In this document: positions 6,063 to 11,288 of the stretch, in pieces
How positions within the stretch are numbered: the stretch's first letter is position 1
Layout of the letters: the number at the start of each line of letters is the position of its first letter
Assembly: GCA_964403725.1 (NCBI GenBank)
Contig: CAYOHI010000004.1
Location: 1,784 to 50,967 of the forward strand
From: an uncultured Candidatus Saccharibacteria bacterium
GTDB lineage: Bacteria; Patescibacteriota; Minisyncoccia; Portnoybacterales; UBA2143
DNA: 49,184 nt
Reading direction: 5' to 3'
The notes under the pieces: model-generated
What the model was told of the DNA's origin: nothing
Databases searched by the model: none
Seen by the model: the letters and a program-made list of their open reading frames with translations, nothing else
Made by a program: the position numbers and the translations under genes

Positions 6063-6689
6063 ATGAAAATTATCAAGAATAATAACATTGATTGGTCATC
6101 TGATACAGCTTATGTTGTTGGATTGATAACTACGGACGGATGTTTGTCAGGCGACGGAAGACATATCGATTTTACATCTAAAGATATCCAATTATTAAAA
6201 ACATTCAAGAAGTGTCTAGGTATTAAAAATAAAATAACACTTAAAAAAAGTTCTTATACTGGTCGAAAAGATTGTTCCCGTATCCAATTTGGGAATGTTA
6301 TATTTTATAGATGGTTGCTTGATATAGGATTAATGACTAATAAAACAAAAAGAATGAAAGAAATCAAAGTGCCAAATAAATTCTTTTTTGATTTTTTACG
6401 CGGATATTTAGACGGCGATGGACATATCAGAAAATACCAAGATCCTGTATATCCTAATAGCCTAAGAATCTATGTATCTTTTTCTTCGTGCAATATAGAA
6501 CATCTTGAATGGTTGAGAAATAGAATTAATAAACTTCTGTTCATTAACGGATTCTTTAAAAAAGGACCCAGAGCGTATAGTTTAACTTTTTCAAAAAAAG
6601 AATCTTTAATTCTATTACCAAGAATTTATCCAAATTCAGAAGTTCCTTGTCTCAAGAGAAAATACAATATTATTAAGAATCTAATATAA
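6063..6689 (+). CDS. Free-standing double-motif LAGLIDADG endonuclease-like protein
   Basis: AYVVGLITTDG and FLRGYLDGDG motifs. Confidence 0.85.
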   Translation: MKIIKNNNIDWSSDTAYVVGLITTDGCLSGDGRHIDFTSKDIQLLKTFKKCLGIKNKITLKKSSYTGRKDCSRIQFGNVIFYRWLLDIGLMTNKTKRMKEIKVPNKFFFDFLRGYLDGDGHIRKYQDPVYPNSLRIYVSFSSCNIEHLEWLRNRINKLLFINGFFKKGPRAYSLTFSKKESLILLPRIYPNSEVPCLKRKYNIIKNLI

Positions 6690-6692
6690 GAA

Positions 6693-6775
6693 GCCGAAGT
6701 GATGAAACTGGCAAACATGCACGGTTCAGAACCGTGTGCCCCTAGGGCTTATGGGTTCAAATCCCATCTTCGGCA
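6693..6775 (+). tRNA. tRNA-Leu (CAG)
   Basis: GCCGAAG/CTTCGGC acceptor stem, CACGG-TTCAGAA-CCGTG anticodon arm, long variable arm, TTCAAAT T-loop; CCA not encoded. Confidence 0.95.
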
Positions 6776-6878
6776 CAGTTAAAAAACTTATCATTTAAAA
6801 GATAAAAAACAATAATATTTTGTTAAACTGCTACTCGGCAAAATATTTTGTTTAGCTTTGAATGAAAAAATAAAATAT

Positions 6879-8561
6879 ATGACAAAAACAACAAAATCAA
6901 AAAGCCTAAGGATTATTCCATTAGGCGGCTTAGAAGGTATTGGACGCAATATGATGGTTCTTGAATACCAAGACGACATTATCATTATTGACGTCGGCCT
7001 ACAGTTCCCTGAGGAAGACATGCCAGGCATTGATTACATCATTCCTAACACAGCTTACCTTAAGGACAAAAAAGACAAAATAAAGGGTGTTATCATAACC
7101 CATGGTCACTTAGACCATATTGGAGCCATTCCTCATTCTATGGGAAGATTAGGCAATCCTCCAATCTATGCTGCACCTTTAACTAAAGGAATCATCTTAA
7201 AAAGACAGATTGATTTCCCGGGATCGCCGAAATTAGATCTCCATGACATAAATAAGACATCTAAAATCAAATTAGGTTGTTTTAAGGTTGAATTCTTTCA
7301 TGTTAATCACAATATCCCAGATGGATTAGGCATAGTTATCGATACCCCTGTCGGAAGAATTGTTCATACTGGCGACTTTAAATTTGACCATACTCCAATT
7401 GGCGATGAACCAGCTGATATTTCAAGAATTACTGAAATAGCTAATGGCGGCGTTCATCTATTGATGTCAGACAGCACTGGCGCTGAAAAACCAGGCCATT
7501 CAATCTCTGAAAGAGATATTCAGGATAACCTGGAAACAATATTCAGGGAATCCCAGGGAAGAATAGTCATTGCTACCTTTGCATCCCTGATCAGCAGAAT
7601 CCAGCAAGTTATTAACTTAGCTGAGAAATATGACAGAAAAGTACTAGTTGACGGGTATAGCATGAAATCTAATGTTGAATTAGCCAAGAAATTAAAGCAT
7701 CTCAAATCGAAACCAGGCACATTGAACAAAATTAGCGCTATTAAGGATTATCCAGACAACAAAGTAGTCATCCTATGCACAGGCAGCCAAGGAGAAAGCA
7801 ATGCCGTACTGATGAGAATCGTCAACAGAGAACATCGCTATGTCCAGACTCAAAAAGGAGATGCAGTTGTCTTTTCATCATCATCTGTGCCAGGCAACGA
7901 AAGATCTGTCCAGAATCTTAAAGATATCCTATGGCAGCAAGGAGCCAGGGTGTATCATTACAAGATGATGGATATCCATGCCGGCGGACACGCCCAAGTT
8001 GAAGATTTGAAAATGATGATTAACCTCATCAGGCCTAAGTTCTTCTTCCCAATCCACGGCAACTATTACATGCTCAAGCTACATGGAGAAATTGCCCAAG
8101 GAGTAGGCATTCCAACTAAAAACATCATGACAGCCAGTAATGGAGATGTAGTTCTCTTAAACAAAAGAAGCATATCCCAAAGCAAAGAAAAAGTACCGGC
8201 CGGGTACGTCATGGTTGACGGCCTAGGCGTTGGCGATGTCGGCCAGGTAGTCCTCAGAGATAGACAAGCTATGGCTAAAGATGGTATGTTTGTAATAATA
8301 ACGCTAATTGATGGAAAAACAGGACAAGTCAGAGGTGAACCAGATATCATTTCTAGAGGATTTGTTTATCTCAGAGAAAATAAGGAATTACTTGATAAAA
8401 CTAGAGAAAAAGTTAGAGATATTGTTAAACATGCTTCTTCAACTAACAATACATCCAACTGGACATACATTAAAGAAAATATTCGTGACAAGGTTGGCCA
8501 ATTCCTGTATACTAAGACACAGAGACGCCCAATGGTCTTACCGGTAGTAATCAAAGTATAG
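6879..8561 (+). CDS. rnj: Ribonuclease J
   Basis: IPLGGLEGIGRNM, THGHLDHIG, HTGDFK, HAGGH, PIHG and RRPMVLPV motifs. Confidence 0.97.
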   Translation: MTKTTKSKSLRIIPLGGLEGIGRNMMVLEYQDDIIIIDVGLQFPEEDMPGIDYIIPNTAYLKDKKDKIKGVIITHGHLDHIGAIPHSMGRLGNPPIYAAPLTKGIILKRQIDFPGSPKLDLHDINKTSKIKLGCFKVEFFHVNHNIPDGLGIVIDTPVGRIVHTGDFKFDHTPIGDEPADISRITEIANGGVHLLMSDSTGAEKPGHSISERDIQDNLETIFRESQGRIVIATFASLISRIQQVINLAEKYDRKVLVDGYSMKSNVELAKKLKHLKSKPGTLNKISAIKDYPDNKVVILCTGSQGESNAVLMRIVNREHRYVQTQKGDAVVFSSSSVPGNERSVQNLKDILWQQGARVYHYKMMDIHAGGHAQVEDLKMMINLIRPKFFFPIHGNYYMLKLHGEIAQGVGIPTKNIMTASNGDVVLLNKRSISQSKEKVPAGYVMVDGLGVGDVGQVVLRDRQAMAKDGMFVIITLIDGKTGQVRGEPDIISRGFVYLRENKELLDKTREKVRDIVKHASSTNNTSNWTYIKENIRDKVGQFLYTKTQRRPMVLPVVIKV

Positions 8562-8624: not shown

Positions 8625-9326
8625 ATGAACAATCAAGACAAGAAAGTCCAATCAGATCCTTTAAGAGCCAATTCAGGGAATCCTCAATTATTCGGTACAC
8701 CTAACCCCAATGACCCAACACCTATGTCGAGCGGTCCGCAATTCGGTTTAGAGAACACAGACAGCAAAAAAGAAAAATTCAGAGGCTGGATTAACAAATA
8801 CGGCAGCTCTGTAATTTTACCAATCGTTGCCTTGTCCATTTTGGCTGGTGGTATTTATCTTTACACCAATCAAAAAAATGAACAAGCAAAGCTATTTCCA
8901 GAAGATAACTTGGCTGGAATCCAGGAACAATTACCTGGTGCTACTGATGAAGGAGTCGTCGCTGATCCTAATCAGAAAATTAGCCAAGCCCCTAATACAG
9001 ACAAGCCTATTGAAAAGATTATTCCTCAAGGGAGAAAAGAAGGTAAAAACATTATTGAAAAAGCAGCTACTGGAGAAGGCACAACGCATTTAGCTCGTCG
9101 TGCCCTAAAAGATTACCTCAAGGATAATAAACGTGAATTAACTAACGAACATAAAATATATATTGAAGATTACCTTAAAGATGAAATTGGCTCACAACCA
9201 TTAGAAGTTGGTGAAGAAATCACCTTTTCTGAAGATTTAATTAACGAAGCTATAGACGCTTCACTTGAATTAAATCCAGAGCAACTTAAAAACCTGGAAC
9301 AATACAGCGCTTTAGTTGCCTGGTAG
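8625..9326 (+). CDS. Single-TM membrane-anchored hypothetical protein
   Basis: One hydrophobic segment, low-complexity linker, C-terminal domain GEGTTHLARRAL...IYIEDYL. Confidence 0.75.
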   Translation: MNNQDKKVQSDPLRANSGNPQLFGTPNPNDPTPMSSGPQFGLENTDSKKEKFRGWINKYGSSVILPIVALSILAGGIYLYTNQKNEQAKLFPEDNLAGIQEQLPGATDEGVVADPNQKISQAPNTDKPIEKIIPQGRKEGKNIIEKAATGEGTTHLARRALKDYLKDNKRELTNEHKIYIEDYLKDEIGSQPLEVGEEITFSEDLINEAIDASLELNPEQLKNLEQYSALVAW

Positions 9327-9365
9327 CGTATATAAATACGTTTAGTTCTTTCCTTTATATTCAAA

Positions 9366-9394
9366 CATAAAAGCCCCCATTGGGGGCTTTTATG
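9366..9394. terminator. Bidirectional intrinsic terminator
   Basis: CATAAAAGCCCCC/GGGGGCTTTTATG inverted repeat. Confidence 0.85.
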
Positions 9395-9871
9395 ATATAT
9401 TTTGTTCGTAAGAACATTATCTTTCTGTTAAAAACAGATAGATAACAACATTTTCTTGAGCTAGTAACTGAGTCAGACCCAGTTAAAGACTAAAGATAAA
9501 TGCTACCGCTACTAATACAAACTAGCAAGCAGTAGTGTGGGAATCCTTTGGGCACAAGGCCCGTTTCAATAAGGAGGGATTTTGAAACTCTATAAATAGA
9601 TCAAGATTCCCACACTACTACCAACTAATACTTTTATTTTGAAAGGACGATGACGAATCAGTCCTTTTGGTTGTTTTGTGCGACCCTGCGGGGCGCCGTA
9701 GCCTCAAAGGTCCGGTGGCCGGTGGGGCGCATGCTGTATTTATACGATTTAATCGAAGACCGATCAGCTCTGACGGGCGGCCGAGAGGGATATATCCTCG
9801 TATATGGGGTAGCCTCGTAGCCAGATCGGGTATATGATGTTTTGAAGGTTTAAATCCGATTTGTCATCGTT
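9366..9871 (-). ncRNA. Candidate ~500-nt structured non-coding RNA
   Basis: No ORF of 60 aa or more; consensus promoter; stems 9856-9870/9647-9661 (13 of 15) and 9605-9619/9531-9545 (15 of 15); GC-rich core. Confidence 0.65.
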
Positions 9872-9877
9872 GTAACA

Positions 9878-9906
9878 AGCATAGCATACCCTGACAAATT
9901 TGTCAA
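9878..9906 (-). promoter_or_regulatory. Strong sigma70 promoter with extended -10
   Basis: TTGACA-17-TATGCT with TGn immediately before the -10. Confidence 0.8.
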
Positions 9907-9986
9907 GAGTTTTTGCCTATTTTCATAAAAAACAAAAGAACAACAAATTAGTGCTCTTATCTCAAGGGCTTGTCTTATTTAAAAAA

Positions 9987-11288
9987 TTAATCAAAATATT
10001 CTTTTTGAAACTGCGATGCATAGGTCATTGCTCTCTCTGCAACCGATAACAATCCTCGCCAATACTTTCCGCCAACATACATAGCATAAGCTTTTCTTTC
10101 AGCTTCATATGTCTTAGCCGTAGCTCCAGCATCAGCCAACTTAATAGCTGAAGCTGTGAAAGCATCCCTGAAATTCCAAGGGTTAGGAGGATTACTGCCT
10201 GTAACAGAAGCAATTCTATCTTTGTATGACAGCCAAGTGGTTGGCATGAATTGAGCTATGCCCATAGCCCCACCACACCCTCTGTAAGCCGTTGGTTTGG
10301 CTGAAACGGGCTGTGCATCTGGATCTATGCCTAATTCTTCACAAATCTGCAAAAAAGCGTTCTTCATGCTATTACCCATAGTGATATATCCCCGGTTGAT
10401 ATTGCATTGATACATATCATATTTCCAGGTTCCTGTACCGACATTCAATCCAAGACGGGATTCATTCTCTAGAACTCCTAAAAGGAAAGCAGGCCTGATG
10501 CCAGTCTTTGTTCCGGCATAAATGGCATTCTGAACAGCATCATCTAAGGTAATGTCATATTTATCCAGCAAGGTCAGCTGATCTTTGATATAGTTGATCT
10601 CTTGCTCATTGCTCTCGATCATCTGCCTATAACGGGCTTCTTCTCCCTTGGTCTTATCAAGCAAGTCTTCTTTTTGCCATTGCTTTACCTCAACATCCCT
10701 CTTTTGAGATAATTGGACTGTCTTTAGCCTATTCTGAACATCCCTCTGGCCTTCTAACTCATCTTTTTGCAATTGCATTTCATCTTTTAAAGAATGCACA
10801 GCAGCCAGAATCGTATGGATTTGCTCTTGAACAGTCTCTAATGCATTTAATTCATCAAAGAAATCGGAAAACTTCTCATTTTTCAATATTACCTCCAAAA
10901 GGCTTTCCTGGTCATATTGAGCCATTGTCCTTAAGTACTCAGCCAAAAGCTCTTTCTTTTCTTTGATTCTAGTCTCTAAATCATAAATTTGAGAATCTAT
11001 TCCCTGTATATCCAAAGTGCTTCTCTGAATCATTAAATCAACTTGATTGATTTCAGCTCTAATCTGGTCAATCTGGTCTTCTAGAATATTGATATCTGTT
11101 TGAAGTGATTTTGCTTTTTCCTTATTCTGATCAATACTGCCTTGGTACTGGCTAATTTCTTGTTCTTTCTGCTTTATTTGATTCTCTAAATCCTTCTTCA
11201 GATCATCTACGCTGGCCCCGGACACAGAAAAAGGAACCGCCAAGGCGATTAATAGGAGAAAACCAATATATTTGCTTTTTTCAAACAT
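9987..11288 (-). CDS. Secreted coiled-coil protein with C-terminal lytic transglycosylase domain
   Basis: Signal peptide, long heptad region, ENES and GAMGIAQFMPTTW motifs. Confidence 0.9.
   Translation of the reverse strand: MFEKSKYIGFLLLIALAVPFSVSGASVDDLKKDLENQIKQKEQEISQYQGSIDQNKEKAKSLQTDINILEDQIDQIRAEINQVDLMIQRSTLDIQGIDSQIYDLETRIKEKKELLAEYLRTMAQYDQESLLEVILKNEKFSDFFDELNALETVQEQIHTILAAVHSLKDEMQLQKDELEGQRDVQNRLKTVQLSQKRDVEVKQWQKEDLLDKTKGEEARYRQMIESNEQEINYIKDQLTLLDKYDITLDDAVQNAIYAGTKTGIRPAFLLGVLENESRLGLNVGTGTWKYDMYQCNINRGYITMGNSMKNAFLQICEELGIDPDAQPVSAKPTAYRGCGGAMGIAQFMPTTWLSYKDRIASVTGSNPPNPWNFRDAFTASAIKLADAGATAKTYEAERKAYAMYVGGKYWRGLLSVAERAMTYASQFQKEYFD

Follow-up and report, generated by a model that had tools for sequence, protein, structure and literature searches.

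A conserved, structured RNA with an anti-Shine–Dalgarno-like loop predicted in a Saccharibacteria-labelled lineage of Patescibacteria

What is encoded by some 500 nucleotides (nt) of DNA without a substantial open reading frame (ORF), at positions 9366–9871 of the 49,184-nt stretch analysed here (the window)? The window belongs to a 675-kb genome, 99% complete (G000). A first reading, made from the sequence alone, had proposed a new large noncoding RNA (ncRNA) at this place, and comparison with relatives upholds the proposal: the interval is a predicted promoter–terminator unit without an Rfam match, it is conserved and covaries, and a covariance model of its module A (R1) scores 112.8 bits on the RNA strand versus 43.9 on the complement. 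We conclude from these comparisons that the interval encodes a real, strand-specific, conserved structured ncRNA of a family not yet described. This RNA probably controls translation in these bacteria, and we tentatively read it as a trans-acting regulator that would pair with Shine–Dalgarno (SD) sites. Its predicted parts, in transcript order, are the following.

9366–9871, minus strand: RNA gene, ~505 nt, stand-alone, from predicted promoter to terminator
9878..9906, minus strand: sigma-70-type promoter, TTGACA-17-TGnTATGCT, 10/12 matches, with TG before the -10 element
9647–9871, minus strand: V1, a GC-rich, lineage-variable 5′ domain closed by the helix 9856–9870 / 9647–9661
9642–9667, minus strand: alternative hairpin AAAGGAC/GUCCUUU (9661–9667 with 9642–9648), which would sequester the 3′ strand of the V1 closing helix
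9636–9648, minus strand: boxA-like element GUCCUUUCAAAAU, between V1 and module A
9522–9630, minus strand: module A, ~106 nt, a 25-bp helix (P1) capped by hairpins P2, P3 and P4
9615–9629 (X) and 9522–9534 (Y), minus strand: strands of the base of P1, paired in module A
9564–9587, minus strand: hairpin P3, with the anti-SD-like loop AAUCCCUCCUUA at 9570–9581
9447–9534, minus strand: module B, ~87 nt, with the Y/X′ hairpin, a closing helix CAUUUAU/AAAAUGU and a hairpin tipped by GGGUCUGACUC
9522–9534 (Y) and 9505–9515 (X′), minus strand: Y/X′ hairpin, mutually exclusive with the X/Y base of P1
9416–9446, minus strand: hairpin C, a variable 3′ hairpin found in the single-sequence fold
9366–9394, minus strand, working both ways: intrinsic terminator, 13 pairs, 7 of them G-C, then a T run

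Promoter and terminator stand where the first reading had seen them, at 9906..9878 and 9366–9394, facing each other across about 500 nt, and the promoter position predicts an RNA start near 9871. The DNA between them contains only ORFs of 21–56 amino acids (aa), both 56-aa ORFs being on the opposite strand and without a Pfam match, in agreement with its earlier description as ORF-free. GC content is 0.51–0.56 across ~9650–9850 versus 0.25–0.45 in the flanks. The predicted 516-nt transcript folds at -173.3 kcal/mol, compared with -121.4 ± 6.0 for shuffled sequences (z = -8.6; 0/100 shuffles as good). A TTGACA promoter with an extended -10 element was found 0–253 nt upstream of module A at 25/25 family loci examined (for G018 the automated pick was a neighbouring site, and the true promoter was read from the printed sequence), and likewise upstream of five of five distant copies read. 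The terminator hairpin (AAAAGCCCC...GGGGCUUUU) recurs in the relatives' sequences read. Across the loci, the order runs from the promoter through an optional V1, a boxA-like element in some, module A, module B and optional hairpins or domains to a shared terminator. The genome itself holds 107 sites with a perfect TTGACA and at least four of six matches in the -10 element, and the promoter of the RNA gene is credible, not exceptional within G000. An exceptional, rRNA-like promoter (rRNA, ribosomal RNA) was considered and ruled out, the 107 TTGACA promoters being of comparable quality.

Compensatory changes argue that the predicted fold is maintained. An independent MAFFT alignment of 27 module A sequences, four of them from other families, shows such changes at 29 of 38 pairs, with 93.7% of cells paired versus 36–51% in controls with slid partners; 0/500 shuffles reach this level. 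RNAalifold predicts 58 pairs for modules A and B together (12 sequences with both modules, alignment A1), 28 of them with compensatory changes. Here 94.4% of cells are paired, compared with 35–52% when partners are slid by 1–3 columns, and 0/500 shuffles reach the covariation. Module B scores 93.9 bits with its own covariance model (R2), and its helices (5–7 of alignment A1) have compensatory changes at 11 of 21 pairs. Sequence is also highly conserved outside the loops in one part of P1, GUGRGAAUC/GAUUCYCAC, where five pairs are invariant. A plain DNA search matched 18 of 40 relatives (19 of 41 genomes with G000 included), over the 3′ half of the RNA and the promoter.

The hint at function comes from the loop of hairpin P3. 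It holds CCUCC in 26 of the 27 aligned copies (CCUUC in G014), and all six pairs of its stem show compensatory changes. The 16S rRNA of relatives ends in GGAUCACCUCCUUUCU (...CACCUCCUUUCU), and the P3 loop therefore presents the core anti-SD sequence. Copies from other families (G080a, G080b, G092 and G079) keep the CCUCCU loop despite an almost entirely different P1 sequence. Judging from this pattern, the P3 loop is a selected feature of the RNA, and CCUCCU is the most conserved single-stranded element of the predicted fold. An unpaired, conserved C-rich motif complementary to SD is one mark of the class of small RNAs (sRNAs) that target SD sites, and the predicted fold displays such a motif. 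The tip of P2 is a site of expansion, mostly 4–8 nt long, with a long extra hairpin (>60 nt) in G049 and G010.

Could the RNA belong to a family already known? Rfam 15 (4227 models), run over the 49-kb window, gave a tRNA at 6693–6775 as the sole gathering-level match. At E ≤ 10 the interval itself returned weak, terminator-driven matches only, the best of them Phe_leader with 29.7 bits versus a gathering score of 55. The families covered include RsaE, RNAIII, 6S, signal recognition particle (SRP) RNA, transfer-messenger RNA (tmRNA), RNase P, T-box, OLE, GOLLD, ROOL and raiA, and an ARAGORN scan for tRNA and tmRNA over 9000–10300 found nothing. The first reading had seen no RNase P, tmRNA, SRP or T-box signatures, and no family reaches its gathering score in the interval. 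The titles and opening lines of abstracts in the literature yielded no published description of such an RNA.

Models of modules A and B were run on 59 genomes of the order, 36 from the window's family and 23 from six other families. Module A was found in 25 genomes and module B in 22, every one in the window's family, where 20 genomes have both modules, five have A only, two have B only and nine have neither, with a single copy in 27/36. None of the 23 genomes from the six sister families (0/23) carried either module in this search. The syntenic site of G023 shows the flanking genes abutting, with terminators alone between them. Of 151 genomes sampled evenly across the class, nine had module A, five of them in the window's family; the clear copies outside the family are two in G080 and those of G092 and G079. 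Among 150 sampled genomes of the phylum there was one weak match. G198, G182 and G267 (33–39 bits) were excluded as members, G182 being without the CCUCC loop. Scanning 185,579 species genomes for a sequence pattern of the RNA gave 17 loci, and metagenome contigs gave 24 more of the same types; the scan of viral contigs, made with a phage origin in mind, gave 0 matches. The genome records that carry the RNA are labelled as metagenome-assembled genomes of Candidatus Saccharibacteria or of the Patescibacteria/Parcubacteria group.

The distant copies retain P1 (with nearly every pair changed), P4, the CCUCCU loop and a TTGACA promoter of their own, and they adjoin unrelated genes, among them patatin-like, L31 and ClpP genes. 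Both G080 copies lie 50–110 nt upstream of ORFs with strong SD sites, and a cis role is possible for these two. Forms with module A only are predicted sRNAs of ~110–150 nt, each with a promoter of its own and a terminator; in the minimal ones, predicted at ~110 nt in G079 and G198, P1 and a U run double as the terminator. Taken over all loci, the comparison shows a predicted obligatory core consisting of module A, module B or both, to which V1, the boxA-like element and extra 3′ hairpins are optional additions. The first reading had seen a two-domain RNA: both domains are present, but the GC-rich 5′ domain is unconserved and the conserved gene is the second domain. Hairpin C also varies, relatives carrying a hairpin of other sequence at its position.

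The two modules meet in strand Y, which can pair either with X or with X′. The Y/X′ hairpin has compensatory changes at 5 of 11 pairs, with 95.5% of cells paired versus 20–50% in slid controls, and the X/Y pairs covary too. RNAs with module A only keep X/Y, and those with module B only (G017, G020) keep Y/X′. When each state was enforced in 12 RNAs, full P1 was favoured by -0.4 to +11.5 kcal/mol, and the two states lay within 2 kcal/mol of each other in five. The alternation of X/Y and Y/X′ is thus a switch-like feature that comparison supports, unlike the AAAGGAC/GUCCUUU hairpin, to which such a role had been given at first. The single-sequence minimum-energy fold does pick that hairpin, which the sequence-only reading had noted as an alternative, but a hairpin of this type was seen by eye in only three of the nine closed-leader RNAs (G000, G002, G055), and covariation backs the other pair of states.

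V1 had been described accurately as to its form. The first 15 nt pair exactly with 9647–9661 and close a GC-rich domain at -18.8 kcal/mol, compared with -6.5 ± 2.0 in shuffled sequences (RNAduplex; 0/200 shuffles reach it), and the inner helices named at the time, CCGATC/GATCGG and GCGCC/GGCGC, are in its minimum-energy fold, with GAGGCTAC present twice. A DNA search of 40 relatives gave no match to V1, only the 3′ half of the RNA and the promoter being matched. The leader, measured from the predicted start to module A, is 0–26 nt long in 14 of the 25 module A RNAs and 79–253 nt long in the other 11. Nine of the 11 long leaders are closed by a 5′/3′ helix of -19 to -37 kcal/mol (0/200 shuffles reach), semi-conserved and of the GAUGGUGAAU/AUUCACCAUC type, around unrelated interiors. 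In the window's own genus, leader lengths are 241, 115, 192 and 89 nt in the four species, again with unrelated interiors. Given these lengths and interiors, V1 is a rapidly replaced, helix-closed insert, not a conserved domain.

V1 was also considered as a repeat, as a mobile element and as an antisense to a gene of its own genome, and these ideas were rejected, blastn-short against G000 returning only chance matches of ≤16 nt. Reads from four DNA runs gave short low-depth contigs and one contig of a close relative, and were uninformative on V1 polymorphism. The assembly of a congener, G001, breaks exactly at the RNA promoter, with the end of contig C7 and the start of contig C2 sharing a 31-nt promoter piece; this break may reflect strain heterogeneity around V1. 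In another genus (g13), the main RNA gene is closely preceded by a small separate unit that has a promoter and a terminator of its own, at ~1100–1290 of L016 (G015) and ~1290–1440 of L045 (G057) on the RNA-sense strand. In this unit, a V1-type hairpin of minimal size (GGUAGAUGA...UCAUCUUCC) precedes CCACCUCCUUU, which equals the anti-SD tail of 16S rRNA exactly.

The consensus of boxA is UGCUCUUUAACAA / UGUUCUUUGAAAACU. The rRNA operon of G000 lies outside its assembly, and we compared the boxA-like element with the rRNA leaders of relatives, where elements of this kind stand 8–12 nt past the promoter (GUCCUUUUAUAAU in G003, of the same genus; UGUUCUUUGAAAAUAG in G015; GCGUUCUUUAAAAAAAG in G023; GUACUUUGAUAAUU in G007). 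These leaders back the boxA-like label of the first reading. The G000 element, GUCCUUUCAAAAU, resembles GUCCUUUUAUAAU of G003, and the RNA of G007 carries in its 26-nt leader GUAAUUUGAUAAUU, the same unusual variant as in its own rRNA leader. Similar elements follow V1 in G001, G002 and G049, and the G080 copies have CUCUUUGACAAC and CACUUUGACAAC. As with the rRNA-leader boxA, a site of antitermination by NusB and NusE, there is a likeness in sequence and NusB is encoded in G000 (PF01029, E = 2.7e-35). Unlike that boxA, the present element belongs to a non-ribosomal RNA and to some members only, in a genome where a Rho gene was not found. In some members it is probably a Nus-factor site, and it does not define the family.

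The 16S rRNA genes of two of these relatives are interrupted (G015 C4 and G007 C4; L100–L103), the Rfam small-subunit model matching in two pieces, 9–546 and the rest, ~700–760 nt apart. Insertions of this kind are common in rRNA genes of the candidate phyla radiation (CPR).

The surroundings of the RNA gene in the window are these.

8625–9326, plus strand: 233-aa ORF, convergent with the RNA gene, without a Pfam or NCBIfam match
9987–11288, minus strand: PcsB/SLT-like cell-wall hydrolase gene, 433 aa, upstream of the RNA gene
6858–8561: RNase J gene, beyond the 233-aa ORF and thus one gene further

The constant neighbours are the convergent 233-aa gene, with which the RNA gene has its terminator in common, and, in most relatives, the hydrolase gene upstream; another gene stands upstream in genus g2 (G048, G049). 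The association with RNase J suggested at first comes down to proximity. At 9327–9365, after the stop codon of the 233-aa gene and ahead of the shared terminator, there is a motif conserved in almost all relatives read; its sequence is UAGUUCUUU on the plus strand and AAAGAACUA in the sense of the RNA.

How might such an RNA work? We hypothesize, tentatively and at somewhat under an even chance, a trans-acting regulator that pairs with SD sites, with an X/Y/X′ switch and boxA recruitment. The exposed CCUCCU loop would pair in trans with SD sequences of mRNAs and block binding of the 30S subunit, and long RNA–mRNA duplexes might be cut by RNase III, which is encoded (rnc) beside nusB in G000. 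The C-rich-loop sRNAs of Firmicutes (RoxS/RsaE, RNAIII, RsaC) work in this way. Strand Y, by pairing with X or with X′, would switch the conformation of the RNA and so expose or hide its 5′ end, and the boxA-like element could recruit NusB and NusE to the transcribing polymerase, as on rRNA operons. GGAGG precedes 69 of 707 ORFs of G000 and nothing SD-like precedes 364 of 707, a count in which the choice of start codons is biased towards SD. With GGAGG at only about one ORF in ten, such an RNA would have just some of the genes under its control.

The same genome holds a second predicted ncRNA, unrelated in sequence, of ~280 nt (contig C1, L174:974–1286, minus strand), between a 172-aa ORF and dprA. 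Its promoter is TTGACA-16-TGGTATAGT, with 11/12 matches; a long hairpin takes up the first 100 nt of the RNA and carries AUCCCUCCUAA as its terminal loop (fold z = -4.4). It is poorly conserved, the 5′ hairpin alone being found in 4/41 genomes by blastn. The genes for RNase III and NusB stand in one operon, rpmF (L32) – nusB – rnc, on contig C12 (L118:76–1200).

Several results weigh against an SD-pairing regulator of this kind. The start, end and abundance of the RNA are predicted values. No specific conserved mRNA target of the P3 loop was found, and complementarity to CCUCC is common to every SD and therefore provides no target discrimination. The boxA-like element and the RNase III gene had made nusB attractive as a target, and its ribosome-binding site AAUAAGGAGGGAU is complementary to the P3 loop over 13 nt without a mismatch, but in G000 and G001 only. 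These are the only two of 30 family genomes with an SD upstream of nusB (the other 28 having none), and the match, the best that the loop has in antisense in G000, is at chance level (E about 4); nusB was rejected as a conserved target. The hydrolase gene was likewise rejected as a specific target, complementarity being confined to the SD core in the four genomes with a visible start. Pairing with 16S rRNA or its leader was dropped as well, with chance matches of ≤10 nt only in G003. The RNA is dispensable, 9/36 family genomes lacking both modules and the flanking genes of G023 abutting. As to the switch, the full-P1 state is favoured by ~6–11.5 kcal/mol in seven of 12 RNAs, so that it may not operate unaided. 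As to boxA recruitment, the element is clear in about five of the 11 long-leader RNAs and in G007 and absent from most short-leader forms, and a search for a Rho gene in G000 found none, which removes the usual reason for antitermination. Finally, a pure SD-pairing model leaves module B, the 25-bp P1 and V1 unexplained.

The main rival of SD pairing is a protein-binding sponge, a decoy or the scaffold of a ribonucleoprotein, which we consider unlikely on present evidence. The CCUCCU hairpin would mimic the 16S tail and titrate a protein that binds it, or a thrice-repeated UUAGC element would bind a protein, and the modules would be separate platforms. The optional and expandable parts are scaffold-like (a P2 tip of 4 to >60 nt, as in G049 and G010; A-only and B-only forms), conservation is high outside the loops in the GUGRGAAUC/GAUUCYCAC part of P1 with its five invariant pairs, UAUUAGC occurs three times in the G003 RNA, and a specific mRNA target was not found. 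Yet no protein gene is constantly linked to the RNA across the class, the distant copies lying beside unrelated genes; the 233-aa neighbour shows no recognisable RNA-binding family, and no candidate partner was found. It is more improbable that V1 is a riboswitch-like sensor, in which a ligand or factor would stabilise the closing helix, the AAAGGAC/GUCCUUU hairpin forming otherwise, with control over read-through or the folding of A and B. The layout does resemble an aptamer with a closing helix and a competing hairpin, and the helix is present, with semi-conserved sequence, in nine of the 11 long leaders. The interiors, however, are the opposite of a conserved aptamer: they are unrelated within a genus, unmatched in 40 relatives and variable in length (79–253 nt), where a riboswitch should have an aptamer conserved across species. 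V1 is absent from 14/25 RNAs, no Rfam riboswitch matches it, and the competing hairpin, found in three of nine closed-leader RNAs only, is A-U rich and without a proper U tail.

Action in cis on the neighbouring genes is, to our judgement, very unlikely. Read-through past the shared terminator could give an RNA complementary to the 3′ end of the convergent 233-aa ORF; alternatively, the RNA could be a 3′ extension or regulator of the hydrolase mRNA (SD UAAGGAGGAAUAA). Most family genomes have the RNA at this site between the two genes, a strong SD precedes the hydrolase gene in the four genomes with a visible start, and the conserved AAAGAACUA lies just past the terminator. Every copy examined, however, has its own promoter, the upstream gene differs in genus g2, distant copies have other neighbours, and complementarity to the hydrolase site stops at the SD core. 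That the interval encodes a diverged 6S, SRP or other known housekeeping RNA is hardly credible any longer and already largely refuted. Its appeal was that both roles looked vacant in G000, where 6S RNA (RF00013) has no match and SRP RNA none either (RF00169 not even at E ≤ 10; RF01854 none). The Ffh M domain (PF02978) and the SRP54-type GTPase (PF00448) were not found in G000, however, which leaves an SRP RNA without a partner and excludes a diverged SRP RNA at this place. Moreover, 6S RNA is a long irregular hairpin with paired ends and a large central bubble, whereas here three hairpins cap a helix, a second domain follows and the ends are unpaired; the RNA is missing in 9/36 family genomes and in nearly all of the class; and RNase P RNA and tmRNA are located elsewhere, on other contigs of the genome.

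The SRP searches gave an observation of their own. Small SRP RNA (RF00169) is found in 0/41 genomes of the order. PF00448, which covers Ffh and FtsY, matches in 1/59 genomes of the order (G018, on a small contig that is possibly contamination) and in 0/81 sampled genomes of the class at E ≤ 1e-10, with controls positive in 14/14 known genomes. If true, an entire bacterial class would be without SRP; titles and abstract openings in the literature held no statement of SRP absence in the class.

Among known RNAs, the closest in kind are the SD-targeting sRNAs of Bacillus and Staphylococcus, RoxS/RsaE and FsrA, whose C-rich single-stranded loops are complementary to SD (PMC8216469; PMC2790875). 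Like them, the present RNA is a separate unit (predicted here) from promoter to terminator with a C-rich loop complementary to SD, and there are several per genome, at least two RNAs of G000 having a AUCCCUCCU loop. Unlike them, it is 2–5 times longer, has one C-rich loop and not two to four, and adds a 25-bp closing helix, a second module, alternative pairings and a boxA-like element; there is no match in sequence or structure, those sRNAs are from Firmicutes and this one is from Patescibacteria, and its target pairing is one that we infer.

RNAIII is another RNA of ~500 nt with many hairpins, whose C-rich loops act on ribosome-binding sites together with RNase III. The layout of V1 followed by modules A and B can be likened to that of Staphylococcus aureus RsaC, a large regulatory RNA as is RNAIII (PMC6765141; PMC2837412). 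In RsaC, variation comes from repeats; V1 is non-repetitive, GC-rich and helix-closed. Unlike RsaC and RNAIII, to which it has no homology, our RNA has no evident encoded peptide and no known link to quorum sensing or metal response. It is like OLE, GOLLD, ROOL, HEARO and raiA in being a large, highly structured bacterial RNA with clear covariation, and unlike these and 6S and SRP RNA it has no Rfam match and differs in taxonomic range and fold. sRNAs with a C-rich loop are thus a known kind of RNA; what is unusual in this one is its size, modularity, conserved alternative pairing and boxA-like element.

A bolder form of the SD-pairing hypothesis is distinctly doubtful. It would make the RNA a stable, lineage-specific mimic of the ribosome, transcribed like rRNA with boxA and Nus factors and presenting its anti-SD on a rigid 25-bp stalk. 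It might rival 30S subunits in binding those few mRNAs that are SD-led, and thereby establish a global programme of translation in SD-poor episymbionts of ultra-small size. The X/Y/X′ alternation would then turn the RNA on and off or expose its 5′ end to RNase J, and V1 would serve as a quickly evolving module for specificity or sensing.

The genomes of Patescibacteria (CPR) are tiny, with very few known regulators. Almost no ncRNAs beyond the housekeeping set were found described for them in the literature, as far as titles and the beginnings of abstracts tell. A covariation-supported RNA family of one Saccharibacteria-labelled lineage, whose top conserved feature is the ribosome's mRNA-binding sequence, is of interest here, and the P3 loop offers a concrete handle on post-transcriptional control in these organisms. 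The relatives also constitute a natural experiment on functional parts: the core occurs as A, B or A and B, the tips are expandable, and the 5′ domain is swapped between congeners. If the SD-sponge interpretation were true, the C-rich-loop strategy of sRNAs would exist outside Firmicutes, possibly in a global rather than target-specific form.

Two minor observations concern other parts of the window. A PemK/MazF-like toxin ORF stands beside a RadC-like gene (526–948 and 950–1678, both on the minus strand), and an ORF with a LAGLIDADG domain (6063–6689, plus strand) stops 4 nt short of the tRNA gene at 6693–6775.

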